Source: Candidatus Iainarchaeum sp.
GTDB taxonomy: Archaea > Iainarchaeota > Iainarchaeia > Iainarchaeales > DTGL01
Direction of reading: 5' to 3'
NCBI GenBank assembly: GCA_026413945.1
Contig: JAOAJX010000001.1
Coordinates: forward strand, 64,001-128,000
DNA: 64,000 nt
The notes under the pieces were generated by a model, which was given only the letters and a program-made list of their open reading frames with translations, did no database searches and was not told the origin of the DNA. Each line of letters opens with the position of its first letter. The first letter of the stretch is position 1. Below, piece after piece: positions 11,924 to 40,353 of the stretch. The translations under genes were made by a program, and so were the position numbers.

Positions 11924-12664
11924 TTATTTTTTTGGCTTTTTATCTGCTTTAAAGCCAATTGAAATGTGTGTTCCGTCGCAAAATGGTTTGTTGCTAGAAG
12001 CACCACATCTGCAAAGCGTAACCCTGTTTCTTTTCTCATAATAGAAGCCTTTTGACGACTTTATGGGAATGCCGCCTTTTACCCAAATGGGGCCCGAGCA
12101 TTTAGCTTGTGGATCTTCAACAAGAGCAATGCCTTTTTTGTGCTTTGGCTCAATCTTACCTCCGTTTTTTTCGAGAGCAACAAGACGCCCTGAAGGGCAA
12201 TTGCAAGCGGATTCTATTGCAATTTTTCTCATTTTTTTGTCAGAGGATTTTTTAATTAAGTTCCATATGCCATTAGCTCTATGGCAAAACCTTGCTGAAG
12301 CGCAAAGCTCAGGCCAGTCGAGTAAGTCAAGCTCTGGGCCGGAGTATTTTTTAGCTTTCTCTATATAAGATGCGTTATCAGCTGTTTCTGTGCCATCAAA
12401 GTTTATAAGTATGTGAGTGCCATCGCAGTACGGCTTATTTTTTGATCCACCGCACCTACACAAAGCATAGGTTTTTTTGCTTTTAAAGGCCTCTGCTTTC
12501 AACCATTTCTGTGGCTCATTATCCGAACCTATTGCAATGATTTCCTTGCGCAAAGGCACGCGGCCCGAGACAATGTAAGGCCCATTTTCGGTTATATTTA
12601 TTTCAGCGAAAGTTCTTCCCTTTTGCATATTGGCTTTTTTAATATTTTTATTGGAAGAATCCAA
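11924..12664 (-). CDS. CDGSH iron-sulfur domain protein (two CDGSH domains around a ferredoxin-like domain)
   Basis: LCRCGGSKNKPYCDGTH and LCRCGASSNKPFCDGTH; central LCASARFC...CPSGRL. Confidence 0.92.
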   Translation of the reverse strand: MDSSNKNIKKANMQKGRTFAEINITENGPYIVSGRVPLRKEIIAIGSDNEPQKWLKAEAFKSKKTYALCRCGGSKNKPYCDGTHILINFDGTETADNASYIEKAKKYSGPELDLLDWPELCASARFCHRANGIWNLIKKSSDKKMRKIAIESACNCPSGRLVALEKNGGKIEPKHKKGIALVEDPQAKCSGPIWVKGGIPIKSSKGFYYEKRNRVTLCRCGASSNKPFCDGTHISIGFKADKKPKK

Positions 12665-14000: not shown

Positions 14001-14756
14001 CTATTTTTTCTCCTTCTTGAAGCAAAGAAACCAATCAATGCAGTGCACATCTGCTTGCTTTTTCTCTGCTCTTTCCTTGGCTGCGCCGCATGATCCTGGT
14101 GCGGGAATAATGACATCTTCGCCTGGCTGCCAGTTTGCTGGCGTAGCAATTCCTTCCTTATCTGATTTTTGCAATGATAAAAGCAGGCGCTTTATTTCCT
14201 GCATATTCCTGCCTGCTGATAAGGGGTAATAAAGTATTGCCCTTATTTTTGCCTTGTCATCTATTATGAAAACAGCCCTTACGGCTTGTGTGCTTGAAGC
14301 GTTTGGCTGTATCATGCCAAATTTCTTTGCGACTTCCATCTTTATGTCCTCAATTACAGGAAACTTTACCTCAACATTTTTGCGCCCTTTATACTCAATC
14401 TTCTCCTTGATTGTTCTTAGCCAAGCGATGTGCGCATATATGCTGTCTATTGAAAGCCCAATGAGTTCCGTATTGAGTTTCTTAAAATCCTCGTGCATTG
14501 AAGCAAACTCTATGAATTCTGTTGTACATACAGGCGTAAAGTCAGCAGGGTGGCTGAATAGAATTACCCATTTGCCCTTGTAATCCTCTGGAAAGTTTAT
14601 TTCGCCCATTGTTGTTCTTGCCTTGAAGGAAGGCGCATCATCGCCTATTAAAGGCATCTTGTTGCAGGAGCATTCGTGCTCACTGCAGCATTTGCATTCG
14701 CAACAACATTTGCAGTGGCATTCACTGCATCCACATTTGCATTTTTGCTCTTCCAT
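14001..14756 (-). CDS. Peroxiredoxin (Prx6/archaeal type) with Cys-rich N-terminal extension
   Basis: FSHPADFTPVCTTEF, VRAVFIID, YYP..GRN..EI.R, ATPANW.PG, C.DWFLC; ATG 14756 after a GGGGG RBS. Confidence 0.92.
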   Translation of the reverse strand: MEEQKCKCGCSECHCKCCCECKCCSEHECSCNKMPLIGDDAPSFKARTTMGEINFPEDYKGKWVILFSHPADFTPVCTTEFIEFASMHEDFKKLNTELIGLSIDSIYAHIAWLRTIKEKIEYKGRKNVEVKFPVIEDIKMEVAKKFGMIQPNASSTQAVRAVFIIDDKAKIRAILYYPLSAGRNMQEIKRLLLSLQKSDKEGIATPANWQPGEDVIIPAPGSCGAAKERAEKKQADVHCIDWFLCFKKEKK

Positions 14757-14766
14757 AAAAACCCCC

Positions 14767-14916
14767 TTATTTATATTTTTTAAGTGCTTTTTCAATGCTA
14801 TATTCCTTTCTTTCAGAAAATTCCTGCCTTTTGCCATCGTTCCAATTTTGGACAGGCCTGTAATAGCCAACAACTCTTGAATAAACCTCTGTCCTTCTTC
14901 CGCATTTCTCATTCAT
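14767..14916 (-). CDS. Stand-alone NrdD C-terminal glycyl-radical-domain microprotein (49 aa; not in the ORF track)
   Basis: Manual translation MNEKCGRRTEVYSRVVGYYRPVQNWNDGKRQEFSERKEYSIEKALKKYK*; ATG overlaps the rubrerythrin TGA (ATGA); matches the NrdD tail SRV.GY.RP...WN.GK..EF..R. Confidence 0.85.
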   Translation of the reverse strand: MNEKCGRRTEVYSRVVGYYRPVQNWNDGKRQEFSERKEYSIEKALKKYK

Positions 14917-15440
14917 ATTGCGCCACGCTCTTCAGATAATTGCAAGTGATCGGTTTCAACCTCAACTAATGCCTCGAATATCTGCTTTACCCTTGGGTTT
15001 TTTGATTCTGAAGCTGCTCTGCTGTAAAACTCGATAGCTCTTGTTTCCCTTGCATGCGACTCCTTAAGGTTATCAAGATAATTCACTGAGCAAGAGTCAT
15101 TGCTTTGGGGTATTTCTTTGAGCTTTAATATCTTCTTCCATATGCTTGCGTGCTCTGCCTCAACTTTGCCCAAGGCCTTGAAAAGCTTTTTAGCTTCTGG
15201 ATCATTTGTTTTATCTGCAGCGCAGAAATAAAATGCAGAGTTGCTTACTTCAACTTGCAAAGCATATTCTGCATTTTTCTTGTCCTTTGCGTTCAGCTCA
15301 ACATCGAAGTTTGGCTTTGCGTCGCTGAATGCTTTTACATGCCTTCCACGAGCTCCGCAAAAAGGGCAGCATGTTGGCGGCGCATAGCCAATGTAAGGAT
15401 CTCCACAAATTTCACAAATCCAAAGCTTGGCGTTTGCCAA
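14913..15440 (-). CDS. Rubrerythrin-like protein (N-terminal rubredoxin-like domain plus ferritin-like di-iron domain)
   Basis: WICEICG...CPFCG, then E..FY, EAEH, E.RAIEFY, VETDH; TTG start after an AGGTGAT RBS. Confidence 0.88.
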   Translation of the reverse strand: MANAKLWICEICGDPYIGYAPPTCCPFCGARGRHVKAFSDAKPNFDVELNAKDKKNAEYALQVEVSNSAFYFCAADKTNDPEAKKLFKALGKVEAEHASIWKKILKLKEIPQSNDSCSVNYLDNLKESHARETRAIEFYSRAASESKNPRVKQIFEALVEVETDHLQLSEERGAI

Positions 15441-15444
15441 AAAA

Positions 15445-15831
15445 TCACCTCTTTTCAGAACATTTTTTGCAAAGGCCTTCAACACACATTATTACTGATT
15501 CTACCTTGAAGCCTCTCATATTTGGCACATCTGATAGCTTTGTACAGAGCTCTTTGTCATTATGGTCTATTATAGAACCGCAGCACCTACAAACGAAGTG
15601 AACATGGCTGCTTCTGTCGCAATCAAACCTATATTCATTATTTACTTTAAATCTTAATATTTTCCCATCATCCGCAAGCTTGTGAAGATTTCTATAGACT
15701 GTTGCTAAGGTTATGGACGGAATTTCCTTGCGGACATGTTCAAAAACCATTTCAGCATTTGGGTGGCTTCTAACGCTGCAAACATATTCCTTTATTTTTT
15801 GCATTTGAATTGTTTTTCTTACCTTCGCCAT
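15445..15831 (-). CDS. Fur/PerR family transcriptional repressor
   Basis: HPNAE..F..VR...PSITLATVYRNL, RFD...H.HFVC..CG, GLCKKC. Confidence 0.92.
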   Translation of the reverse strand: MAKVRKTIQMQKIKEYVCSVRSHPNAEMVFEHVRKEIPSITLATVYRNLHKLADDGKILRFKVNNEYRFDCDRSSHVHFVCRCCGSIIDHNDKELCTKLSDVPNMRGFKVESVIMCVEGLCKKCSEKR

Positions 15832-15842
15832 ATAAGCCCCTA

Positions 15843-15859
15843 TTGAAAACGATTATCAA
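15843..15859 (-). promoter_or_regulatory. Fur-box-like operator just upstream of the Fur/PerR gene, downstream of a TTTAAATA TATA box (~15873-15880)
   Basis: Minus strand TTGATAAT-C-GTTTTCAA versus the 7-1-7 Fur consensus TGATAAT-n-ATTATCA (2 mismatches). Confidence 0.6.
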
Positions 15860-15958
15860 ATAATATCCATTCTTATTTAAAACCTTTCTGTAGTGTGAAT
15901 CTCAAAAGGTTTAAATATACCTTAAGCCCTATTATCTAAATAAAGTAAAGGTGTTATT

Positions 15959-27820: not shown

Positions 27821-28753
27821 ATGCCAATAAAGCGCCTTGATCTGAAGCTTGGCTTCAGGTGCAACAACAATTGCCTTAGCTGCCCTCAGGCACATAGGAG
27901 GCATCTTGGTGACTTGCGCCTTGAGGAAATAAAAAAACTTCTTGAAAAAGGCCGTGAGCATGAAGCCAATGAGGTTGTGCTTACAGGCGGAGAGCCAACA
28001 GTAAGGCCTGATATCCTTGAAATAATTGCTTACGCAAAAAAAATTGGCTATGAGTTTATACAGCTTCAGACAAATGCAAGAATGCTCTATTACAAAGAAT
28101 TTTGCGAGAAGCTTGTTGCAGCAGGCATAACTGATTTTGCACCTGCAATCCATGGTCCTAACGCTCAAGTTCACGACTATTTGGTGCAATCTCCAGGAGC
28201 ATTTGAACAAGCAATAAAAGGTGTTAGAAACCTCAAAGAACTGGGCCAATATGTGATAATGAACTCTGTCATAAACAAAATAAACTATGTGCTGCTTCCT
28301 GAAACAGCAAGGCTTTTTGTTGACCTTTGCGTAGACCAATACCAATTTGCATTTATACATTGTGTTGGAAATGCGAAAAAAAATATTGATCTTTTGCTGC
28401 CCAGGAAAAGTGAGGTTAAGCCTTATCTGCACAAAGCGCTTGATATTGGAATAAATGCTGGAATAAAAGTAATGGTTGAGGCATACCCTTATTGCTTTAT
28501 GCAAGGTTATGAAAAGCATTGCTCTGAGCTTTATATGCCAAATGCAGAAATTATGGATGCTGAAGGCATAGTTGAAGATTTTGAAAAGCTTAGGAAAGAG
28601 ACAGGCAAGCTAAAGGGAGAAAATTGCGAAAAATGCCGCTATGACCTTATTTGTGAAGGTCCTTGGAAGGAGTATCCACAAAAATTTGGCTGGAAAGAAT
28701 TTGTGCCTGTTAAAGGCAAAAAGATAATAAGCAAAAAGGAGTTGCTTGGATAA
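27821..28753 (+). CDS. Radical SAM protein, HxsC-like paralog 1
   Basis: CNNNCLSC, LTGGEPT.R.D, QTNAR, YPYC, C-terminal C..C.....CEG....Y. Confidence 0.88.
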   Translation: MPIKRLDLKLGFRCNNNCLSCPQAHRRHLGDLRLEEIKKLLEKGREHEANEVVLTGGEPTVRPDILEIIAYAKKIGYEFIQLQTNARMLYYKEFCEKLVAAGITDFAPAIHGPNAQVHDYLVQSPGAFEQAIKGVRNLKELGQYVIMNSVINKINYVLLPETARLFVDLCVDQYQFAFIHCVGNAKKNIDLLLPRKSEVKPYLHKALDIGINAGIKVMVEAYPYCFMQGYEKHCSELYMPNAEIMDAEGIVEDFEKLRKETGKLKGENCEKCRYDLICEGPWKEYPQKFGWKEFVPVKGKKIISKKELLG

Positions 28754-30251
28754 GAGAAATGAGTTAATTGTTTTAAAAAGATTGCTCGCAATTCCTAATA
28801 TGGTTGAGCGCATGAAAGAAAAAAGCATCGACTTTGATTCTTGCTATTTGCTTAATCAATACAACACAAAAAAACTAAGAGATAATGCATATTTGATAAC
28901 AACAGAACATGGCGCATGGGCCTTATTGAACAAAAAACAGTACAATCTGCTAAGGCTACAGCGGCTAAGCAAAGACAGAAAGCTCTTTGATGCGCTTGAG
29001 AAGAAGGGCATAGTGTTAACTGAAAATAATGTACAGAGCATAGTAAAGGCCTATGCTGTGAGAAACTCATTTCTTTTTCAGGGACCGTCATTGCACATAG
29101 TTGTGCCTACGTTGAGATGCAACCAGCGTTGCATATATTGCCATTCAAGAGCAGAGCCAGAAAGCGGCAGGGGCTTTGATATGGACAAAGATACAGCAAA
29201 AGCAGTTGTTGATTTCATCTTCAAGAGCCCTTCAGAGATTCTAATAATAGAGTTTCAGGGCGGCGACTGCCTTCTAAACTTTGAAATAACTGAGTTTATA
29301 ATAGACTATGCAAAAGAGCTTGCAAAAAAACATAAGAAAAAAGTTGGATTTTCAATTGTAACAAACCTCACAAAGATGGATGAAGATATAATAAGAAGCT
29401 TGAAGGAAAGGCACATAATGGGCTTAGCAACCTCCCTCGATGGTCCAAAGTATTTGCATGACAAAAATAGGCGTTATCTCGGTGGCAAAGGCACTTATGA
29501 AGATGTTGTGTATTGGATTAAAAGGATTAAGGAAGAATGGAAATACGATTTCAACCTAAATGCGCTTTGTACAATAACAAGGTACTCTTTACCCTATGGG
29601 AAGGAGATTGTTGATGAGTATTTGCGCCTTGGCTTTGATGGTATTTGGCTCAGGTTTATGAACAATATTGGTTTTGCTGCAGAAGCTTGGGGTAAAATTG
29701 GTTATTCTCCAGAGGAATATCTTGGCTTTTATGAAAATACACTTGATTACATTGTGAGCAAAAACACCAAAGAGAAGCATTTCACTGAGCTTATGGCTTT
29801 GATATTTCTTAAAAAAATACTCGGTGAAAGAGATCCCTATTTTACAGATATCCAAAGCCCTTGTGGAGCAGGAATAGGGCAACTGCTTTACAAATACAAT
29901 GGCGATATACATACGTGCGACGAAGGAAAGCTATTCGAGGAGTTTAAGCTAGGCAATGTTTTTACATCTAAGTATGAGGAAATATTCAAAAATGATACGC
30001 TAACAACAATGATTGATATATCATCAAAAAAGAATTATCTGTGTGATGCATGTATTTGGAGCCCATATTGTGGAATATGTCCGCTGCACACTTATGCAAC
30101 ACAAGGCACAATAGTTTCAAAGCTCGCTTTGGATGAACGATGCAAAATAATGAATGGCCTCATAAGCAGGATCTTCGAGAGGCAGTTGTTCTCAAAAAGG
30201 CACAGGGCTGTTTTCGGGAGATGGGTCGAAAAAGATGTTGTCTTTAAGTAG
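28746..30251 (+). CDS. hxsB: His-Xaa-Ser system radical SAM maturase HxsB
   Basis: SLHIVVPTLRCNQRCIYCH, IEFQGG, TSLDGP..LHD.NR, SPCGAGIGQL.Y.YNGDI.TCDEG, SPASM C..C...PYCG.CP. Confidence 0.88.
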   Translation: MDKRNELIVLKRLLAIPNMVERMKEKSIDFDSCYLLNQYNTKKLRDNAYLITTEHGAWALLNKKQYNLLRLQRLSKDRKLFDALEKKGIVLTENNVQSIVKAYAVRNSFLFQGPSLHIVVPTLRCNQRCIYCHSRAEPESGRGFDMDKDTAKAVVDFIFKSPSEILIIEFQGGDCLLNFEITEFIIDYAKELAKKHKKKVGFSIVTNLTKMDEDIIRSLKERHIMGLATSLDGPKYLHDKNRRYLGGKGTYEDVVYWIKRIKEEWKYDFNLNALCTITRYSLPYGKEIVDEYLRLGFDGIWLRFMNNIGFAAEAWGKIGYSPEEYLGFYENTLDYIVSKNTKEKHFTELMALIFLKKILGERDPYFTDIQSPCGAGIGQLLYKYNGDIHTCDEGKLFEEFKLGNVFTSKYEEIFKNDTLTTMIDISSKKNYLCDACIWSPYCGICPLHTYATQGTIVSKLALDERCKIMNGLISRIFERQLFSKRHRAVFGRWVEKDVVFK

Positions 30252-30259
30252 GGGTTTGC

Positions 30260-31330
30260 TTGTTTGAGTTCTTTTTTGTTTTTGCAATGCTGATTTCTTT
30301 TGCTATTGCACTCGAAGATATCCGTCATGGAAAAATACCAAATAAGCTAATAGTTTTACTTTATGCTCTTGGTATTTTTTATCAAGTGTTTTCAGCGACT
30401 GAGTACATGAAAGTAGTTTACACTTTTTTTTATGCACTAGCAATATCTTTTTTCCTTTGGCTTATCGGAATATGGCCTGCTGGCGATGCAAAGCTTTTTT
30501 CTGTTCTATTCTTGCTTTTGCCTCAGGCACTTTACAGCTCGACGACCCTAACTTTTGATTTTATGGTGAATTGCTTCGTGCCGATATTTTTCAGTATGTT
30601 TTTTGTTATAATAGCAAAGAGCCGCTTTTCGGTATTAAAAGATGCGATTAAGTTTACATTACAGCCATACAGAGTAACGATTCTAGCTTTAGCTTTGCTT
30701 GGCTTTGTTTGGTTTATCTCAAAAGGATTAAGCTTTCTCGCTTTTGGGCAAGCAATTTTCAGCGATTATTTTGTAATGTTGCTCTTGCTTTTTTTAACAT
30801 ATGAAGTCCTGAGGCGAATGTTAAGTGCAAAGGTTGAGCTTATTTTATTTTTTCTTGCTGTTCTGAGAGTTTTTCTTGATTATAGAAATGTATACTCGCT
30901 CACTTTCATGCTTAACTTCGGAAAAATGATTGCTGTATTCCTTCTCTTCCGCTTTTTTATAATATACCTGGCCTTTAAGCTTTACACAAAAAGTGTTGCA
31001 ATAAAGAACCTCAAGCCAGGCATGTGTCCTGCGGAAATGATTTTGCAGAAAGGCGATGAATTCGAGAGGATAAGCTTTCTGAATTCAGGCCTTTTGACAT
31101 TTGGCCATGAAAAGAAGGGTGAGCTAATACACAGCATTGACTACCTGTCAGAGGAGGATATAAAAAGGATAAAAAAACTGCGAAAGGAAAATAAGATTCC
31201 TTTCAATGACATGCTGATAAACTTCACGCAGCCATTTGCAGTATTCATTGTTCTCGGTTATGCGCTTACTGTGCTTTTTGGTACAAACTTTGTGCTTTAC
31301 ATTACAAAGACCGTCATGCTTTCCCAATGA
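30260..31330 (+). CDS. Second A24 prepilin peptidase-like protein, inside the Hxs cluster
   Basis: EDIRHGKIPNKL and PAGDAKLF catalytic Asp motifs, ~9 TM, LKPGM..AE, C-terminal PFAVFIVLG. Confidence 0.82.
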   Translation: MFEFFFVFAMLISFAIALEDIRHGKIPNKLIVLLYALGIFYQVFSATEYMKVVYTFFYALAISFFLWLIGIWPAGDAKLFSVLFLLLPQALYSSTTLTFDFMVNCFVPIFFSMFFVIIAKSRFSVLKDAIKFTLQPYRVTILALALLGFVWFISKGLSFLAFGQAIFSDYFVMLLLLFLTYEVLRRMLSAKVELILFFLAVLRVFLDYRNVYSLTFMLNFGKMIAVFLLFRFFIIYLAFKLYTKSVAIKNLKPGMCPAEMILQKGDEFERISFLNSGLLTFGHEKKGELIHSIDYLSEEDIKRIKKLRKENKIPFNDMLINFTQPFAVFIVLGYALTVLFGTNFVLYITKTVMLSQ

Positions 31331-31380
31331 TTTTTTCCTTCTTAGATAAATTAAAAACAATTATTTGAGGTAATTTAAAT

Positions 31381-32295
31381 ATGCCTGAAACAAAAACTGC
31401 GCTGCTTTTGGGATACAAGTGCAATAACAACTGCAGGTTTTGCTATGCTGCTGATAAGCGTGAACTATATGCAATGAGCACCGAAGAAGCAAAAAAGCAC
31501 TTAAAGGCAGCTGTGGAAAGAGGCTCAAGCTTTGTTGACTTCCTTGGCGGTGAGCCAACTATAAGAAAAGATCTTATTGAGCTAATCTCTCATGCAAAAG
31601 ACCTCGGCTTTAAAACGATAAGCATTACAACAAATGGAAGAATGCTTTCAAATATTGAATATGCTAAAAAGCTTTACAATGCTGGTTTGAATTCAGCGGT
31701 CTTTTCTGTGCATGGGCATAATGCGGAGCTGCACGATTATCTTGTGAATGTTAAGGGCGCTTTTGATCAGCTCGTGAAAGGCATGCAAAATTTTAGGGCA
31801 TTATCAGATGATGTTTACATATGCACTAATACCGTCATTGTAAAGCCGAATGTTTCTTTTTTACCCGATATAGCAGAGCTAAACGCGAAGCTTTTGGCTA
31901 ATGGCATGGAATTTATTTTTCCGCATCCGAGAGGCAACGCATACAAAAATTTTGAAGAAATGGTGCCAAGGTTGGAACAGCTTATAGGCGTTGTTCAGAG
32001 AACAATAGGAGTCTGCACTTCACAAGGCATAAAACACTGCTATTTTAGGTATGTCCCATTTTGCTACATGTACGGCGCAATAAATTTTATAAGCGAGTAT
32101 GCTGCAAAGGAGTCCCTTAAGGAAAATCATATAGGCCCGGAATTTGAGGATCTTGACGTTGAAAAAAACCGCGCAAAGTATGGCCGAATAAAAGGGCCTC
32201 AATGTTTTGGGTGCAAGTACAACAACGTTTGCGAAGGCATCTTCAGAGAATATGCTGAGAAGCGCGGTTTTGAGGAACTTGTGCCAGTACCGTGA
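31381..32295 (+). CDS. Radical SAM protein, HxsC-like paralog 2
   Basis: CNNNCRFC, GGEPTIRKD, TNGRML, VPFC, C..C.....CEG...Y. Confidence 0.88.
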   Translation: MPETKTALLLGYKCNNNCRFCYAADKRELYAMSTEEAKKHLKAAVERGSSFVDFLGGEPTIRKDLIELISHAKDLGFKTISITTNGRMLSNIEYAKKLYNAGLNSAVFSVHGHNAELHDYLVNVKGAFDQLVKGMQNFRALSDDVYICTNTVIVKPNVSFLPDIAELNAKLLANGMEFIFPHPRGNAYKNFEEMVPRLEQLIGVVQRTIGVCTSQGIKHCYFRYVPFCYMYGAINFISEYAAKESLKENHIGPEFEDLDVEKNRAKYGRIKGPQCFGCKYNNVCEGIFREYAEKRGFEELVPVP

Positions 32296-32308
32296 GCAAG
32301 GTGTTTTA

Positions 32309-32764
32309 GTGGAACTAAAAATATTAGTTAAGGCCTTAAGAAGGAAAGAGTTTGCAATTCCGATAGCTTTCCTTTTGTTCCTTTTGTTTTTTGGAGCAAT
32401 AATGCTTCTGGTTGATACTACAAAAAATGTTAAAAACATTGAAAGAGCAAGGATTTCTGGCTGCGTTTTGGAGTATGGGCCTTGGCAATGTATTGATGAT
32501 AAAATAGCTGTACCTTTTTATAATTCCGGGGTTTTAGACATAACAATGGTAAGACTTAGATTTCCTGTAAGAAATGGCTGGAATGTGTATGAGGCAAGTG
32601 GCATGCTCAGAAAAGGCGAGGCTGGAACATTGCTAACTGAAAGCTGTGCAGATGCGATAATGGAAGGCACAAAAGTTGAGTGGTGTTGCTCAAGCGATTG
32701 CTTTATCAGTGACCTTAAAAACCCAAACCAAAATGTTTTAGTAAAAATAAATTCTTTTGGTTAA
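32309..32764 (+). CDS. Pilin-like membrane-anchored small protein
   Basis: Basic leader plus TM; C.....C; YNSGVLDI...LRKGE resembles NTG..DL...LSPKE of the pilins at 53346-54269. Confidence 0.55.
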   Translation: MELKILVKALRRKEFAIPIAFLLFLLFFGAIMLLVDTTKNVKNIERARISGCVLEYGPWQCIDDKIAVPFYNSGVLDITMVRLRFPVRNGWNVYEASGMLRKGEAGTLLTESCADAIMEGTKVEWCCSSDCFISDLKNPNQNVLVKINSFG

Positions 32765-33404
32765 TATGGCAAAAATATTTTTTGGAGATGAACACCTTCC
32801 GGTTTGTGAGACAAATATCGAAGCCATAAGTAAAAACAGCAAAGCGGTATTAAGCTTTACTTTTAGAGAAGTTTTTCAACAAAAAACATTTGCGGAGAAT
32901 GCTAAACTGCTTGAGATTTGCCTAAAAGCAATGAAATATAAGGGAATAAGATTTTTTAGTGTGCCTTTTTGTGTCGCTGAGCCAGAAAAGGTTTCTGTTT
33001 TCAATAGCTTAGCTCTTAAGGTAAAGAGTGGGTTCTACTTTGAAGGTGCATATATGGTTCCTTTAGATAGTTGACCAGGAAAATTACCTGCCTTAAAAGT
33101 ATACGATTGCTGTTTCAGACGCGGTTTATTCGATGTATTAATGGCAATTAATTCTTTTAGTCATTTTAAGGATCCGGCTAAGAGTGTCATTGAAGCTAAG
33201 AGAGTATTGAAAGAAGGCGGCTTATTTATTTTGGTGGAAAATGAAATGGCTGAAAGAGATTTTGGGAGTAGAGATGGCTTTGATTCACATAATAGCCTAA
33301 AAAAGAAGCAGATAAAGGAGTTATTTCTGAAAAATGGGTTCATGTTAAAGACACAAAGAAAGGTTAGGCCTTACTACTTTTTGATGTTTGAGAAGGTTAA
33401 TTAA
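32757..33404 (+). pseudogene. Interrupted ORF (one in-frame TGA at 33072-33074) ending in the C-terminal half of a class I SAM methyltransferase
   Basis: ORFs 32757-33074 and 33141-33404 share a frame with no other stop; FDVLMAINSFSHFKDP....E..RVLK.GG..ILVE; no GxGxG motif I visible. Confidence 0.55.
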
Positions 33405-33414
33405 CAAGCTGAGA

Positions 33415-33436
33415 TGCTTGGGATTTCGCTCAAGCA
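33415..33436. terminator. Hairpin between the two convergent arms of the Hxs cluster
   Basis: TGCTTGGG-ATTTCG-CTCAAGCA in the 45-bp gap between convergent stop codons. Confidence 0.4.
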
Positions 33437-33449
33437 CCTACTTTATAAT

Positions 33450-34391
33450 TTAGCTTAGCAAAATAGCAATTGCGCATTGGCATTGAATGTCTTCTATTTT
33501 TTCGTATTTTTTCAAAATAGCATCTTTTACTTCTTTTTCTTCTTTTTGCTCTAGTAGTGGCTTTGCCTCACAAAGCTTCTTTATAAGCAGATAATCACGA
33601 ACAAAACATAAGTCTTTTGTTTTTTCTTTAATAATTATTTCTCCCATGGTATTGCAAATATTTTGTTCAAAAATGGCAGCCACCTTGCTGTTTTCTTTTC
33701 TGAGTTCTGAAAGGTTTTTGTCAAAAATGTTTAGTGCGGTTGTTGCTTTTGTTTTGAGTTTTCTTAGTTGCTCAGAAGGATCAGTTTTGTCAATTTTTAT
33801 TTCAAGTATTTTGAGTGCAATGTTTTTATCCAAAAAGTTTAAATCTCCGCATTCTTTCTCCGCTGTGACATAGCCGTACAAAGAGTCTAAGTCGTCTTCA
33901 GCGAGTTGTTTCTTTTTAAAATATTCTCTCCAGTAAGTCAGGGCTTTTGAAAACTTTGAGTTATCTAAGATTCTTTGCTTAATTTCTATCCAATTACTAT
34001 CTCTATTAAGCACTCTGATGCTAAAGCAGTATCCACCAAGTACTTTGTTTGGGTCACAAGATTCGGGCACCACACATTTTTTTTCAAACGATGCTTCTAT
34101 TAGCTTTATATGTTCTGGTTTTGTTTCTGCCAACCTTCGTTTAGCTTCAGTATCGCCTGCGAGAAAGGCAAATGTCGATTTCACAACAATGGTGTTGTGT
34201 ATTGCCTGAGGGGTGTTTTCATCAGATAATTTCATAGGTATTTCATCATAGCTGTAAAGGTAAACTTCATAACCTTTTTTTGTTGGATTTATTAGGTGCA
34301 TAATAACAAGTATTAAGGAGATAGCAAAAATTAGCAGCAGTAAAAGCATAACTAAGAACTTCTTTCTGCGATTTAGCAGAATCACGGCCAA
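33450..34391 (-). CDS. Hypothetical membrane-anchored helical protein with several Cys
   Basis: Basic N-terminus plus TM; last gene of the minus arm. Confidence 0.7.
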   Translation of the reverse strand: MAVILLNRRKKFLVMLLLLLIFAISLILVIMHLINPTKKGYEVYLYSYDEIPMKLSDENTPQAIHNTIVVKSTFAFLAGDTEAKRRLAETKPEHIKLIEASFEKKCVVPESCDPNKVLGGYCFSIRVLNRDSNWIEIKQRILDNSKFSKALTYWREYFKKKQLAEDDLDSLYGYVTAEKECGDLNFLDKNIALKILEIKIDKTDPSEQLRKLKTKATTALNIFDKNLSELRKENSKVAAIFEQNICNTMGEIIIKEKTKDLCFVRDYLLIKKLCEAKPLLEQKEEKEVKDAILKKYEKIEDIQCQCAIAILLS

Positions 34392-34433
34392 ACACCTTTC
34401 TTTTGGATGATATTTATATGTCCAGTGCCCTAT

Positions 34434-36287
34434 TTAAACCTTTTTTATTTGGTTTTGCAAAAAGTATTTTTCGTAAAGGGTCTTGCGATCTAAAATATTG
34501 CCAATTTTTGGCCCGGGGCGGTCATTGCAAAACTTTATCTTTCCATCTTGTACAACTTTAAAAAGCTCTAAGCAACCAAAACAGTCCGAAGGGATTCTAA
34601 ATTCGCTGTAGAATTTCTTTTCAGCCTCTTTGCTCATCTCTTGGACAAATATTGGTTTTGTGACTAAAAAAAGCACTCTTGCGGCTTTCAAGTTGTATAG
34701 GAACTCTTTGAAAACAATTGTTTCTCTTGGATTTAATTGTTGTTTGCAAATTGGTGAAAGCAAAACCAAGCCCAATCCTTTTGATCTTTTGTTGAAACTT
34801 ACTATTTCAAAGAATAGCCTGTCAAAATCTTCCTTTTGAGGATCAAATTTAATCAAAAGCACGTCCTTCTTTATTGCAGAGTGGATACTTTGGGAAATGG
34901 TTGCTATGAAGTAATGCCCAAGCAATCTCAAGCCATCTTTGCCATCTTCTAGATAAGGTCTTAGCTTAATTGTTTCTTTATTTGCAAGGTATCTAAAATA
35001 TTCTAAAATCTCCTCTTTTCTATCATCACAATGCATCTTATCTGGAATATAAATTGTTTTGTTTTCTCTCAGGTTTCTTAGCAGACAGCCTCCCCAGCAT
35101 AGCTTAAAATCACATTTTTGGCAAAGTTTAACTTTTTTGTACCAATTTCTTAACTCTTTTAGCTTCTTGTAATCTAAAACAATTTTTTTACTTTTAACGT
35201 CATATCTGCCGAAAATCAAATATGAAGCACCATGATTGAGTATATCTTCTTTATCTCCGAGCATCGCACAGGGAGTTATAAAACCTTCGGGTGTCACCAA
35301 AAAAGTGTTGCATACAGCACACCCGCAAGCAAACTTGTTTCCTAAAGATTTTTGTGCCGGAACAAGACAGCGCAGGTTAACAAGGTCGCACATTTCTTTT
35401 ATGGCAAGCTGCGATCTGATAAGCTTTCTGTAATAATTCATGTGCCTTTTTTTGTTTTTTTTATTTGTAGCTGCTTTACCCATACAACCTACAATTGACA
35501 CAAATATTTTTTCTACACCAAGTGAGTTGAAATACTTTACGGTCTTTTGTTCTTTACCAATATGTGCATATGTCAAAGTTATTTTTATAGTAAAGTCTTG
35601 ATTTTTTGAAACGAGCGCTCTTATATGATTTTCCACTATAATACTACTTTTACCTTCATTCGTGAAAGGTCGCACTTTGTCTTGTATCTCTGGTGGCCCG
35701 TCACAAGATATTTGAAAAGAATCACCAAAATAGTTTTCTTTTAATACAGCCAAATAATTTGAAGGCGAAATGGTACCATTCGTAGAAAGTTTGAATTGTT
35801 TTACGTTAAGCTTCTTTTTTGCATAATTTATTGTTTTTAAAAATAGGTGTTCATTGAGAAGTGGTTCTCCTGAAGTTACGAAGTCAATCAACATAGGCCA
35901 ATTTTGATGCTTGGCCAAAAAATCAGTCGAAGCTTTTATTAATTCAAACGAGGAATCTTTGCCTTTCTTAATACCACCATAACCAACGCAATAACTGCAG
36001 TTCAGGTTGCATTTAGTAGTTATTACAGGAATAAAGTTTTCGAATCTGCTTATTTTTGCAAATGGCTTTTTTGAATTTATGGCAATATATTTTCTTCCAA
36101 ATTTAAGAAAAGCTTCTTCATCCATTAAAAAGAAGTTTGAGGTGTTGCTGCATATAAAGAAAAAAAAGCTTTTTCTTTTGAAGAGCATATGGAGAAAAGG
36201 CTTTCTTTGTATTAGCTCTTTTTTCACTGTCACAAGATTGCTGCTATTAAATTTTTCATTGGAGCCTTCAAAAATCTTTAAAAGCAT
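34434..36287 (-). CDS. Radical SAM/SPASM domain protein with an extra C-terminal domain; directly downstream of the precursor
   Basis: CNLNCSYC, GEPLLN, ISCDGP..IQD..RP, C.......V.PEG.I.PC, CQKCDFKLCWGGC; tail SDCFGCLELF...KFC. Confidence 0.88.
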   Translation of the reverse strand: MLLKIFEGSNEKFNSSNLVTVKKELIQRKPFLHMLFKRKSFFFFICSNTSNFFLMDEEAFLKFGRKYIAINSKKPFAKISRFENFIPVITTKCNLNCSYCVGYGGIKKGKDSSFELIKASTDFLAKHQNWPMLIDFVTSGEPLLNEHLFLKTINYAKKKLNVKQFKLSTNGTISPSNYLAVLKENYFGDSFQISCDGPPEIQDKVRPFTNEGKSSIIVENHIRALVSKNQDFTIKITLTYAHIGKEQKTVKYFNSLGVEKIFVSIVGCMGKAATNKKNKKRHMNYYRKLIRSQLAIKEMCDLVNLRCLVPAQKSLGNKFACGCAVCNTFLVTPEGFITPCAMLGDKEDILNHGASYLIFGRYDVKSKKIVLDYKKLKELRNWYKKVKLCQKCDFKLCWGGCLLRNLRENKTIYIPDKMHCDDRKEEILEYFRYLANKETIKLRPYLEDGKDGLRLLGHYFIATISQSIHSAIKKDVLLIKFDPQKEDFDRLFFEIVSFNKRSKGLGLVLLSPICKQQLNPRETIVFKEFLYNLKAARVLFLVTKPIFVQEMSKEAEKKFYSEFRIPSDCFGCLELFKVVQDGKIKFCNDRPGPKIGNILDRKTLYEKYFLQNQIKKV

Positions 36288-36302
36288 TTTAAAGACCTAA
36301 GC

Positions 36303-36701
36303 TTAGTAGCAGTAAGCTGCATCACAGGCACCGATTCCACTATAATGGCTGCTGTGGCTTCCGTGGCTGCCGTGGCTTCCGTGACTTCCGTGGCTTCCGT
36401 GACTTCCGTGGCTGCTGTGGCTGCTGTGGCTGCTGTGGCTTGCGTGACTTGCATGGCTTGCGTGATGGCCGTGGCTAGCGCTAATATTGCCTGCATTCCA
36501 TCCAACGCTAAAGTAGTTTGTGTGTGTTGCTGCCACTTCAGGCAAAATATTGAGTATTGAAATCGACCCCAAAAAAGCACCAAGGGCAAGCATTTTGTGC
36601 TTTGAAATGCTGCCACGCTCTTCTAGAACAAATGATTTTATAGTTTTTTTTACTTTTGGAAGCAGAGATTCGTTTTCAGATGATTTTTCTTTTTTGGGCA
36701 T
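36303..36701 (-). CDS. hxsA: His-Xaa-Ser repeat precursor peptide (HxsA-like)
   Basis: Leader plus hydrophobic stretch, then (HAS)3(HSS)3(HGS)6 HSS HYS, ending GIGACDAAYCY; embedded among Hxs radical SAM genes. Confidence 0.88.
   Translation of the reverse strand: MPKKEKSSENESLLPKVKKTIKSFVLEERGSISKHKMLALGAFLGSISILNILPEVAATHTNYFSVGWNAGNISASHGHHASHASHASHSSHSSHSSHGSHGSHGSHGSHGSHGSHSSHYSGIGACDAAYCY
36339..36464 (-). repeat. 14 tandem imperfect 9-bp repeats encoding HxS triplets
   Basis: Plus-strand units such as GCTTCCGTG, GCTGCTGTG and GCTTGCGTG. Confidence 0.95.
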
Positions 36702-36759
36702 CTATTAAATAATAGATATACTTATTTAAAATATTTCCTAAAAGTTGAATGGCTGAAAA

Positions 36760-37602
36760 TCATATAATTGGGTTGAATTCTTCTTCGCCAGCAAGGGGTA
36801 TGTAACTTTTCCATATTTTTGGGCATTTTTCCTTAACCTTGCAGATTTCGCACGCTTCAATTAGCGTTAGTTCTGTTTCTTGCTTAGTTATTCCTTCTGC
36901 GAGATGCCAATACTTTTTGTCCATTATACAAAGAGGAAAATGAAACAGCATTACTTCAAAATTTGCCCTTAGTAAAGTTTCTGCTGCCTTCTCTACAAAT
37001 GGCGCTGCTTTGCTATACCTCACAAAAACCTTGCGCCTGTTGATGAACGCATTACCAGTGTATTTTAGGTTGATAAAAACAACCCTTTCAAGTCCTTTGA
37101 AGTTTTTCACAATGAATTCAGCGGTTTTTTTTAGATGCTTATAATTTATCTTCTCCACAAGAATTCTTAACTCAACTTTGAACCCTTTTTCCAGAAGTTT
37201 TTTTATACCATTCACGGTTTCATTCCAGCTTCCCTTGAATTGTGTTATGGAATCATGCACTTCTGGCTTGTGGCTGTACAAAGCTATGCCAAAACGTATT
37301 GGTTCAAGCTTATGCTTGCTTATCTTATCCACAAAGTCTTTACCTGAAAACTTTCGCCCATTGCTGACAACAAATATGAACTTATTAGGGTGTTTCTTTC
37401 TTGCGTATGCTAAGATATCAACGAAATCTTCCCTGAGTGTTGGCTCTCCGCCGGTAACGCCAAAAATCTCGGTTTCCGGAATCTTGTCTATAATCTCAAA
37501 TAATTTTGCTTTGCTTTGCTGCCCCAACCAGCAAGTCATTCTTGTATCAATTATGCAGCTTATGCAATTATTATTGCATTTGAAGGTTAGTGGCCACTCC
37601 AT
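36760..37602 (-). CDS. hxsC: His-Xaa-Ser system radical SAM maturase HxsC
   Basis: CNNNCISC, GVTGGEPTL, SNGR.F, I.LYS....HD.I....GSW.ET..GI, VELRI...K.NY, FHFPLC, C..C.VK..C. Confidence 0.82.
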   Translation of the reverse strand: MEWPLTFKCNNNCISCIIDTRMTCWLGQQSKAKLFEIIDKIPETEIFGVTGGEPTLREDFVDILAYARKKHPNKFIFVVSNGRKFSGKDFVDKISKHKLEPIRFGIALYSHKPEVHDSITQFKGSWNETVNGIKKLLEKGFKVELRILVEKINYKHLKKTAEFIVKNFKGLERVVFINLKYTGNAFINRRKVFVRYSKAAPFVEKAAETLLRANFEVMLFHFPLCIMDKKYWHLAEGITKQETELTLIEACEICKVKEKCPKIWKSYIPLAGEEEFNPII

Positions 37603-38489
37603 TTTAAGTCATCTCCAAGCAATTCTAAGCCTCTAAAGGCAACATACTTCTTGGATATACCAGGGCAATTATTTGCAAAGCGGCAATCTTTACAAATTTT
37701 CAGCTTTTCACAACTGCTTTTTATTTTCGTTTCTAAGTCAACTTTCATATCAAACCAGTACATCTTTGTCTTTAATTGGCCACAAGTAGCGCTGTCCTTG
37801 TTCTTCTTCAATGAGCATGGAGGCATATTCATTACCCAAACTGTAATGCCATGATTTTTTAGTATTGACGCAGCCGAATCCACACTTTCAGAAACCTGTG
37901 CAAACGTAGGTATGAGCCATTTGTTATTAAGCAAGTTACCGTCAATATCCGGGAATATTATGCACATTGCACGAATTTGGTAATTATTGCAGAGGAATTC
38001 TGCTAATTTAGGTAACTCATTGAAATTTATTTTATTTAATACAAAATTTACATCAATGGTAAGGTTTGCTTTTGATGCATTTTCCAGGCCTTTTATTGCT
38101 TTCTCAAATGCGCCTTTAACATTGCAAAGGAAGTCGTGCGTTTCCGGATTTAAGCCATGGATTGAAAGTATTACACCGGTTAGTCCTGCTGCAATCATTT
38201 GATCCAAAAATGCTTTATTTGAAAGCAAAAGGCCGTTTGTTGTAATCCTAACTTCTTTGGCCCCATTTTTTCTTGCAAATGCTATTAGCTCACACAGATC
38301 TTTGCGTATTGTTGGCTCGCCACCAGTAAAGTTAATCTCCTCAGCAAAGTCTTTACCTAACGCTAACATAATTTCCTTCTTTATCTCCTCTGTGCTCTTA
38401 TTCTGGTTCCTATTCCCAACAGAGCAAAAGAGGCAATTGTTGTTGCATGCAAAGCCCAAAACAATTTCAACTTTTCCTAAGTATGTCAT
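37587..38489 (-). CDS. Radical SAM protein, HxsC-like paralog 3
   Basis: CNNNCLFC, FTGGEPTIRKD, SIHG....HD.L, MPPC, C..C.....CPG....Y. Confidence 0.88.
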   Translation of the reverse strand: MTYLGKVEIVLGFACNNNCLFCSVGNRNQNKSTEEIKKEIMLALGKDFAEEINFTGGEPTIRKDLCELIAFARKNGAKEVRITTNGLLLSNKAFLDQMIAAGLTGVILSIHGLNPETHDFLCNVKGAFEKAIKGLENASKANLTIDVNFVLNKINFNELPKLAEFLCNNYQIRAMCIIFPDIDGNLLNNKWLIPTFAQVSESVDSAASILKNHGITVWVMNMPPCSLKKNKDSATCGQLKTKMYWFDMKVDLETKIKSSCEKLKICKDCRFANNCPGISKKYVAFRGLELLGDDLKWSGH

Positions 38490-38504
38490 CAAAGCACCTG
38501 TGCA

Positions 38505-39389
38505 TCAGCTAAATTGCAGCAACAGACCTTTTTCAATTTCCCCAACAAACTTTTTGCCAGAGTAAACTCTTAAAGAATCTTCTTTTGCAATAATGGAGTT
38601 TCCTTTGGATAAGATACCTTTAAACCCACTGAAGTCAATGGATAATTCACCAATAATTGAAGAGTATCTTATTGAATCACCTTCTTTGTGGCCTTCAAAT
38701 GTGCAAAACTCATGATCATTCCACACGATAATTGGCTTCTTTAAAAAATGTTCTGCGCTCTTGCAGAAAGCGGGTATTTGTTTGCTTAAGATATGTTGCA
38801 TTTTTCTTCCAAATTTTAGGCTTTCCTTACAGTCAAAAGAACATGGTTGGTGTGGTATGAAAAAAAGGTTATAAGTGCTTATCCTAATAAAATTTTCATC
38901 ATTGCCAATCAAAGCATAGTCGCCTTTGCTAGAGAAATTGTATGTTGAGTTAAGAAGGAAGTTAAGCTTTTTGCTGTTTTGGAAGATCCTTTCAATAAGG
39001 TTGTAGTCATACTTACCGCCCTGTTTTGAACAGGGGTTTTTTTCAGACAAGGTTTTAATGAAAAAGGAAGTGCAGCAAGGCGGATAGCCAAAAAGGTCAC
39101 CAACATCTATTCTATTGGCATTAGCTTCTGCTCTGGCTGCTTTTTCAATATCTTGCCTCGATTTTGAAATATATGCCAGAAGCATGCTTTCTTTTGTTTC
39201 GTAAATTTTAATCCTCTTTACTTCGCATTCTAAGCCCCAGCCCTTTGCGAGTTTTTTTACGCTTCCCTTGTCATTTTCTGATATTCCTGTTCGCGAAACC
39301 GGCTTTAGGTCATAAACTACTCCAAAAAAATCCACTGGTGAAAAGAACCCAAGCCAAGTTGGTTTTTCAAATAAAATTTTGCTACGCAT
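38505..39389 (-). CDS. DUF483-like protein
   Basis: G.LFGYPPCC..FF and H.PCSFDC.ES motifs. Confidence 0.65.
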   Translation of the reverse strand: MRSKILFEKPTWLGFFSPVDFFGVVYDLKPVSRTGISENDKGSVKKLAKGWGLECEVKRIKIYETKESMLLAYISKSRQDIEKAARAEANANRIDVGDLFGYPPCCTSFFIKTLSEKNPCSKQGGKYDYNLIERIFQNSKKLNFLLNSTYNFSSKGDYALIGNDENFIRISTYNLFFIPHQPCSFDCKESLKFGRKMQHILSKQIPAFCKSAEHFLKKPIIVWNDHEFCTFEGHKEGDSIRYSSIIGELSIDFSGFKGILSKGNSIIAKEDSLRVYSGKKFVGEIEKGLLLQFS

Positions 39390-39390
39390 A

Positions 39391-40353
39391 TCAATACTCC
39401 TGCAGCTTAAATTCTTCTGTGGTAATTTGTTTTCCTTCAATAGGCTTGAATTCTGAAAAGCCCCTTACACGAGTATATTCCTTGAAAGGGCCAACGCAGA
39501 GTAAAAAATATTTGCATTTTTTGCAATTTGCGCCTTTGCTTCTGTACTTCTGCCTGTTTTTTTGTATGTCTGCCCTGAACTTTGGCCCAATCAAAATTGT
39601 GTTTGTGACAGTGAGCTCAGACATAATGTTTGTGTAGCTTGGCAATATGCAAGGATACATATTATGCAAAAAAGGCTTTCCACCCTCTTTGAGTAGAATA
39701 TCACACGCCTCTTTGATGTAAGAAGCAGCTTCATCTATCCTTGGAACCATTCGCTCGAAATCCTGTTTAGCGAAGCCGTCTGGTATTGCAAAATTTAAGT
39801 GATAGCTTTTGGTGTTCTTCTTGAACTTGAGAAGGAAAGCAGCCATTTCAGGCAGTTTTTCATAATTGTAGGTGTTTATTACCGTGCTTGTGCGCTTTTC
39901 AATGCCAAGATCTTCAAGATTTTTCAAGCCAGCAACTTTGTCATCGAAAGAACCTTTTGTTTGCGTAAGGAAATCCTCTAATTTTGCATTTGGCGCGTGT
40001 ATTGATACGAGTACTCGGTTTACACCTAAATCAAAAATTTTCTTCGCATAGTTACGGTACTTAAGCATGCAGCCATTTGTCTGGATCTCAATGACTTCAA
40101 AACCAAGCTTTTTTGCATATCTTATTGCCTCAAACAAATCTTTCCTTATAGTTGGCTCGCCGCCGGAAAAAGATATTATGTCTGCGCCGCATCTCTTGGC
40201 AAACTCCAAATCCTTTTTTATTTCCAACCAGCTTTTTGCGCGGCCATCTGAAACAAGCTTGTGGCCTACCGAGCAAAAAATGCAGCGCTGATTACATTGC
40301 CAATTAACCAGAATTTCAACCTTTTTAAGCCCAATTTCAGCTCTTTCATTCAT
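39391..40353 (-). CDS. Radical SAM protein, HxsC-like paralog 4
   Basis: CNQRCIFC, FSGGEPTIRKD, QTNG, YPC, C..C.....C.G....Y. Confidence 0.88.
   Translation of the reverse strand: MNERAEIGLKKVEILVNWQCNQRCIFCSVGHKLVSDGRAKSWLEIKKDLEFAKRCGADIISFSGGEPTIRKDLFEAIRYAKKLGFEVIEIQTNGCMLKYRNYAKKIFDLGVNRVLVSIHAPNAKLEDFLTQTKGSFDDKVAGLKNLEDLGIEKRTSTVINTYNYEKLPEMAAFLLKFKKNTKSYHLNFAIPDGFAKQDFERMVPRIDEAASYIKEACDILLKEGGKPFLHNMYPCILPSYTNIMSELTVTNTILIGPKFRADIQKNRQKYRSKGANCKKCKYFLLCVGPFKEYTRVRGFSEFKPIEGKQITTEEFKLQEY

Follow-up and report, generated by a model that had tools for sequence, protein, structure and literature searches.

The window analysed here is a stretch of 64,000 nucleotides from Candidatus Iainarchaeum sp. 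(contig JAOAJX010000001.1, positions 64,001 to 128,000). At 14767..14916 (-) it carries a small open reading frame (ORF) whose 49-residue product is a stand-alone glycyl-radical tail of NrdD, the anaerobic (class III) ribonucleotide reductase (RNR). The ORF lies in a cluster with the order perR-rbr-tail-prx, all on the (-) strand. Comparisons with related genomes indicate that it is a real gene, long diverged under purifying selection, and it is best seen as a paralogue of a radical subunit that naturally acts in trans rather than as a domain excised de novo. By analogy with GrcA/YfiD, to which it is not homologous, we favour, at slightly better than even confidence, the view that, under PerR control, it serves class III RNR as a replacement glycyl-radical subunit.

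Identity and conservation of the tail gene

The ORF was identified by profile match and by reading of the frame; its product is MNEKCGRRTEVYSRVVGYYRPVQNWNDGKRQEFSERKEYSIEKALKKYK. Residues 4-39 correspond to positions 526-562 of the 562 positions of PF13597 (NRDD), i.e. to the ~37 last positions only (E 1.4e-11; 44.2 bits, cut-off 26.2). Positions 545-580 of 581 in TIGR02487 were matched with the same E value (1.4e-11). Four NCBIfam NrdD models were likewise matched at their C-terminal ends only, with scores far under the whole-protein cut-offs (47 bits vs 585 for NF006358) because the ORF is fragment-sized. NRDD was the sole match, and PF01228, the Gly_radical family of pyruvate formate-lyase (PFL) type, gave no match at E <= 0.1. 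The product is domain-sized, without the ten-stranded barrel and Cys finger loop of a full NrdD. In the peptide, Cys5 is followed by EVYSRVVGYYRPVQNWNDGKRQEF. The glycyl-radical loop RVVGY is present with its flanks as SRVVGYYRPV, Gly17 being the presumed radical glycine, and all 17 columns that are invariant across 44 short homologues are present. Sequence and PF13597 match thus agree with the original prediction, made from the DNA letters alone, of a stand-alone NrdD glycyl-radical domain with an RVxGY motif. A 50-residue protein in public data (P0001), 87% identical and with the same signature, is a seventh such sequence besides the six operon copies described below.

The tail ATG (14916-14914) overlaps the TGA of the rubrerythrin gene (14915-13) as ATGA, and the tail TAA (14769-67) is followed by 10 nucleotides (GGGGGTTTTT) and then by the peroxiredoxin ATG. 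This arrangement, together with the family matches of the neighbours, agrees with the predicted coupling of the tail between rubrerythrin and peroxiredoxin, downstream of Fur/PerR. The peroxiredoxin start, previously given as 14759, is actually at 14756. Note that the peroxiredoxin frame is open in the 5' direction to an ATG at 14912, forming a 303-residue ORF (14001-14912) that spans the whole tail ORF in another frame. This may lead gene callers to overlook the small gene.

The genome holding the window (G000; 0.95 Mb in 21 contigs, 92% complete) also encodes the expected partners. Its NrdD, on another contig than the operon, has 710 residues, covers PF13597 positions 1-562 with no stop and possesses its own tail, which is identical to the 49-residue product at 34 of 46 residues (~75% at the DNA level). 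An NrdG2-type activase is encoded near nrdD on the same contig (210 bits vs cut-off 131). Full-length nrdD and nrdG are thus both found elsewhere in the genome, as the original prediction required. The ORF therefore cannot be half of a simple split gene, and it is not a decayed nrdD. A simple split, in which the ORF would be the missing tail of a tail-less nrdD, is ruled out in G000 by the uninterrupted NrdD; in three further genomes with an operon copy (G008, G011 and G012) the split nrdD has an adjacent tail besides that copy. A search for class I/II RNR (PF02867) gave no match in the 92%-complete G000, while the control search was positive in 12 of 14 reference genomes. Thus, NrdD appears to be the sole RNR, and the only route to deoxynucleoside triphosphates (dNTPs), of this organism. 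Archaeal markers are present in the window itself, namely DnaG primase (445 bits, cut-off 300) and Hjc resolvase (101 bits, cut-off 70).

To measure selection, six operon copies were compared in all 15 pairs over a 31-codon core. The proportion of synonymous differences (pS) ranged from 0.82 to >1, i.e. was saturated, with a proportion of non-synonymous differences (pN) of 0.05-0.22, indicating purifying selection over a long divergence. In 5/5 genomes of the window's family the tail start overlaps the rbr stop as ATGA, and start, ATGA coupling and stop are preserved across two genera. These data bear out the earlier view of an intact gene and contradict a pseudogene fragment.

We also built a tree of the tails, which is inherently weak at 37 rows and 46 columns. 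One clade (87/83) comprised the five operon copies of the window's family, and the nrdD-linked tails of G008, G010, G011 and G012 formed a separate one (99/97); the copy of G017, a member of another family, was not resolved. G008, G011 and G012 each hold two tail paralogues, one in a body-tail-nrdG cluster and the other in the perR/rbr operon. The paralogy of operon and nrdD-linked tails accordingly looks long-lived, and the operon copy likely originated by duplication of an already independent tail gene.

Split nrdD genes and tail operons across the order

We searched 196 genomes of the same order and obtained 117 tail matches in 107 of them. Open frames of at most 202 residues accounted for 103 of the 117 matches, and frames of at least 592 residues for the other 14. 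NrdD bodies in relatives end at PF13597 position ~525-533. Uninterrupted 1-562 matches were found in 10 genomes only, and 9 more '1-562' matches contain in-frame stops. At all 19 junctions that were read, the CP of the second metal-binding knuckle is followed by a short Lys/Glu-rich linker and then by the body stop, and a separate tail ORF starts with M-x(1-20)-C...EVYSRVVGY in the same or another frame. The junctions consist of an in-frame TAA, TAG or TGA or, in most cases, of a frameshift, which may go in either direction; every tail starts with an ATG of its own. This use of three stop codons, both frameshift directions and separate start codons rules out recoding, a different reading of the genetic code and assembly error, and establishes a true two-gene arrangement, present in the majority of the genomes of the order, with a body gene of ~660 residues and a tail gene of ~45-70 residues. 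Split loci among the relatives are L028, L030, L032, L035-L044, L046 and L133-L137. In G008, G011 and G012, nrdG comes immediately after the tail gene. NrdD is fused in G000 and its genus. Two candidates for additional stand-alone tails, G087:C26 and G132:C8, lie at contig ends facing body fragments elsewhere and were counted as contig-broken split nrdD.

Judged from these gene structures, the ~50-residue tail would normally work as a separate polypeptide, in trans, in this lineage. The idea of an excised domain behind the original prediction consequently holds in part: the radical domain does stand alone, but the tail is already a separate gene in relatives, a context that had been overlooked.

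Many relatives have nrdD bodies in open frames of 1000-1677 residues with gaps in model coverage. These gaps probably reflect inteins, which would occupy several recurrent sites, one lying beside the catalytic Cys loop. Candidate sites were noted in L037 (NrdD residue 275/276, ~940 nucleotides), L040 (residue 389, ~1200 nucleotides), L134 and L137. In addition, a second, divergent NrdD lineage, 28-35% identical to the G000 NrdD and either fused or split, is represented by L131 (G085:C154), L045 (G033:C64) and L044 (G030).

Rubrerythrin orthologues (E <= 1e-20) were found in 20 of the 196 genomes, and a tail ORF follows rbr in six of these: G000; G002, from the genus of G000; G008, G011 and G012, from another genus of the same family; and G017, from another family. 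G000 and G002 share the order perR-rbr-tail-prx. In G011, the tail directly precedes a CDGSH/Fer4_19 iron-sulfur protein (L029:5654-6184 (+)), a shorter homologue of one encoded in the window. The G017 operon (L033:2-2112 (-)) is built differently, with the order perR-rbr-desulfoferrodoxin (superoxide reductase)-tail-8-oxoguanine DNA glycosylase. This second construction, in another family, reinforces the oxidative-stress setting that had been proposed from the window alone. Two extra tails were found in G101, on near-identical contigs (L128:867-1007 (+) and L129, ~2239-2361, -). They are flanked on one side by an ArsR-type regulator and a small Zn-ribbon ORF, and on the other by a 67-residue ferredoxin, an FTR1 iron permease and a DUF1858/NnrS/COX1-like membrane protein. 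All extra tail copies that could be placed thus lie in redox-, metal- or damage-related clusters, and the gene orders suggest that the stress context of a stand-alone tail arose more than once. As a separate observation, the G017 tail ORF has a Gly/Cys-rich C-terminal extension, reminiscent of the Cys-rich N-terminus of the window peroxiredoxin.

Outside the order, a genome-contig collection searched with the 49-residue protein returned at least 80 loci, those listed being nearly all from Clostridia and other bacteria, and 229 short database homologues of the protein were found. Bacterial short NrdD-tail proteins occur on megabase contigs (P0048, P0072, P0079, P0094 and others) and are without the N-terminal Cys; their hosts include Brevinematales, Thermospira aquatica and Thermodesulfobacterium geofontis. 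The ESM Atlas contains NrdD-tail clusters of 537, 115 and 94 members with lengths of 48-51 residues.

The remaining elements of the window operon are as follows. A candidate promoter and operator (15852..15881 (-)) was read from the sequence and compared across six operons. It comprises a TATA-like TTTAAATA at 15874-15881, upstream of perR, and, between this box and the perR ATG, an inverted repeat of 5-3-5 layout that is AT-rich (15852-15864). The pattern TTTAAA[T/C]A, ~9 nucleotides and then an AT-rich element, which we take to resemble Fur/PerR boxes, is found 5' of perR in 6/6 operons compared. The first gene (15445..15831 (-)) encodes a Fur-family, PerR-like regulator of 128 residues (PF01475, 1.5e-21); its top NCBIfam matches are PerR models, at 81 and 80 bits and under their cut-offs of 180 and 200. 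The rubrerythrin gene (longest ORF 14913..15485 (-)) matches PF02915 (4.1e-11) and has a rubredoxin-like N-terminal motif. Its longest ORF would run into perR; given its 174-residue orthologues and the local sequence, the true start is probably the TTG at 15440, 4 nucleotides past the perR stop. The last gene (14001..14756 (-)) encodes a peroxiredoxin with an AhpC/TSA domain and a 1-Cys Prx C-terminal domain (NF009668, 340 bits vs cut-off 211; PF00578, 3.7e-33; PF10417, 3.9e-11). Its N-terminal extension of ~30 residues, encoded at 14660-14756 (-), is about half Cys and metallothionein-like. Downstream of the operon, a protein with CDGSH and Fer4_19 iron-sulfur domains is encoded at 11924-12664 (-). 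Elsewhere in the window, the NrdG2-model search gave six weak radical-SAM matches in a dense cluster within ~13 kb (~27860-40296; G000:C11:91860-104296).

Metal site, proposed mechanism and rival explanations

The likely structural role of the peptide was approached by alignment to the NrdD of T. maritima, from which the metal-ligand roles given here are taken. The 'CP.CG' of T. maritima NrdD aligns with 'CP-(10 residues)-KCG' in the G000 protein, and Cys5 of the peptide would therefore occupy the last (fourth) ligand position of the metal knuckle. The remaining three positions are on the body (C641, H644 and C654 in G000 NrdD numbering) and are invariant in 16 aligned bodies. The peptide thus has one of the four ligand positions. 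Note that the NrdD C-terminal 111 residues alone gave no phmmer match among PDB sequences; the full-length query was needed for the alignment. A study of P. copri NrdD (PMC11226230) describes the glycyl-radical domain as a mobile module that becomes dynamic and in which a Zn site is combined with a buried Gly loop and a surface tail.

We then modelled the complex of NrdD(1-664) with the peptide. The model scored 0.87, against 0.00 for the best control, and passed a mark that is reached by 58 of 80 solved complexes and by 2 of 110 mismatched pairs. The runs had at least 92% of contacts in common, with a partner pLDDT (predicted local distance difference test) of at least 82. The modelled interface comprises body residues 389 and 391 in the Cys finger loop, 637-644 and 650-658, which include the strands of the metal site. 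This result may reflect likeness to solved NrdD structures; it indicates likeness to a native tail rather than binding.

It is established that O2 cuts glycyl radical enzymes at the radical Gly, and PFL is the only one of them for which a repair route is known. In the mechanism that we propose, O2 or reactive oxygen species (ROS) would destroy the NrdD radical by chain cleavage at that Gly. The same stress would derepress perR-rbr-tail-prx, and fresh tail peptide would build up alongside the detoxifying enzymes. Upon return of anoxia, the peptide would dock in the NrdD barrel and take over from the damaged tail, with its N-terminal Cys completing the metal site and its Gly loop lying against the Cys finger loop. 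NrdG would then install a new radical, and dNTP synthesis could resume without remaking of the ~660-residue body. Induction by oxidant, docking, activation by NrdG and rescue by the tail peptide are what we infer from the arrangement. More broadly, we give about an even chance to the view that class III RNR of this order is a two-component enzyme with a disposable ~50-residue radical subunit, of which the PerR-controlled paralogue is a dedicated oxidative-stress replacement part.

A number of observations weigh against a replacement part. With one of four ligand positions, the peptide may not be activatable alone, unlike GrcA. Once cut by O2, the fused G000 NrdD retains its own Cys and a 13-residue stub, which would need to be displaced. 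The distribution of the operon copy is narrow and patchy, and G004, from the genus of G000, has perR-rbr-prx without room for a tail. None of 80 metagenome loci with relatives of the rubrerythrin (at most 71% identity) holds a tail, each fetched stretch being 1.0-6.5 kb and some flanks short; the operon therefore seems limited to a narrow clade, a result that says nothing about function. Partners are unconfirmed in two of the six operon genomes: in G002 (88% complete) no nrdD body and no nrdG were found, and in G017 (76% complete) an N-terminal NrdD fragment only and no nrdG. Of the two G101 tails one is intact, the other having an early TAA. As to expression of the tail, a search of sequencing runs listed no RNA runs. 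At the protein level, operon copies also change more quickly than nrdD-linked tails (between G011 and G008, 8 of 31 core residues differ in the operon copies and 1 of 31 in the linked tails), and in four of the six the residue just before the radical Gly is Cys instead of Val, which systematically sets these copies apart from the nrdD-linked tails in their own genomes. Finally, PerR-type derepression coincides with the oxidant, at a time when a new radical would be destroyed as well.

Such timing suits a brake equally well, i.e. a stress-time decoy that occupies NrdG or the NrdD barrel and delays radical installation until oxidants are gone. Encoded with ROS-detoxifying genes in one operon that a PerR-like repressor controls, the peptide would be made just when radicals would be destroyed, and both the Cys before the Gly and the faster divergence fit this role. 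However, a pure blocker would have no need of the Gly, and the operon copies of the window's family retain every residue that is invariant in the 44 short homologues, the radical Gly and its flanks among them. We know of no precedent for a brake or decoy peptide of this kind and consider it unlikely. Quite unlikely, too, is a condition-specific isoform or extra dose of the radical subunit, made from a second promoter for tuning of redox properties or stoichiometry and having no part in repair. Relatives already use a separate tail gene, three genomes retain two paralogues, and the G101 contigs place an extra copy in a cluster of iron/nitric oxide type, all of which would fit an isoform; yet the fused NrdD of G000 and its genus would require a separate subunit only on loss of its own tail, and the context is oxidative defence or repair in 6/6 operon cases.

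A role apart from NrdD, as a sacrificial sink for radicals or ROS or as partner of another operon protein, would explain why co-occurrence with nrdD and nrdG is unconfirmed in G002 and G017, and the translational coupling to rubrerythrin in 5/5 window-family genomes could be read in the same way. But those two genomes are incomplete, nrdD and nrdG are near neighbours on a single contig in G000, the conserved residues are exactly those of NrdD tails, and the model docks the peptide in the native site (although this may reflect likeness to solved structures). We regard such a role as improbable. The ORF could, lastly, be what is left, without function, of an nrdD 3' end that was duplicated, or an artefact of ORF calling. 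Its shortness, its absence from the otherwise equivalent operon of G004 and the stop in one G101 copy point that way, but the saturated synonymous sites at low pN, the start, ATGA and stop retained across two genera, the clade apart from the nrdD-linked tails and the public 50-residue relative make a leftover very improbable. The replacement subunit remains the reading that we prefer.

Comparison with known systems

GrcA/YfiD of E. coli and Y06I of phage T4 are spare parts for PFL and, like the 49-residue peptide, are small stand-alone glycyl-radical modules. In all these cases a full-length parent with its own module is also encoded; G000, with the fused 710-residue NrdD and NrdG2, has the module alongside parent and activase, as for GrcA. 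The peptide differs from GrcA, a protein of ~127 residues, in that its parent is class III RNR and not PFL, in the absence of sequence homology and of a disordered N-terminal domain, and in its location in a PerR/rubrerythrin operon. Moreover, it probably needs the NrdD body to fold or be activated, unlike GrcA, because three of the four metal-site ligand positions are missing from it. The logic of GrcA, in which the O2-cleaved radical domain is replaced and the activase of the parent reinstalls the radical, is presented as demonstrated in two papers (PMC8683613, PMC13450708) and is the logic that we propose for the peptide. The same papers state that spare parts are known only for formate lyases (a 2026 review) and speculate on other glycyl radical enzymes (a 2021 paper).

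In open-access literature and bioRxiv preprints we found no description of an NrdD spare part, none of an nrdD split at the glycyl-radical domain, and no link between glycyl radicals, rubrerythrin and PerR. Within the literature searched, a spare part for class III RNR and a routinely split nrdD are thus undescribed, the spare-part concept itself being known. The split phage RNR genes treated in PMC3653736 involve introns, inteins and fragmented phage nrdD, which differ from the tail boundary seen here.

If our reading is correct, the peptide would be the first spare-part protein for a glycyl radical enzyme other than formate lyases, and the enzyme would have been split by evolution so that only its oxygen-fragile piece needs remaking. 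In G000 no RNR other than class III was found, and loss of that enzyme would stop DNA synthesis. Whether other glycyl radical enzymes have spare parts becomes directly testable with three small recombinant proteins, and the routine split of nrdD at one boundary provides a natural trans-complementation system. This routine split also offers a possible reason why metagenomes often contain short NrdD fragments; such 'fragments' may be functional subunits that annotation pipelines throw out.

Compared with the C-terminal domain in the NrdD structures of T4, T. maritima and P. copri, the peptide is homologous, residue by residue, from the last knuckle Cys through the RVxGY loop to the surface tail. 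Unlike that domain, it is a polypeptide in its own right with a separate start codon, is encoded at least ~60 genes away from nrdD on another contig, and starts inside the CPxCG knuckle. The closest parallel is provided by the split nrdD tails of the relatives, which share with the operon copy the same module, the same boundary (M-x-x-C-G...) and the same length class (45-70 residues). The split tails are located directly between nrdD body and nrdG, whereas the window copy is located between rubrerythrin and peroxiredoxin. Most simply, the operon copy is a duplicate of a split-type tail gene.
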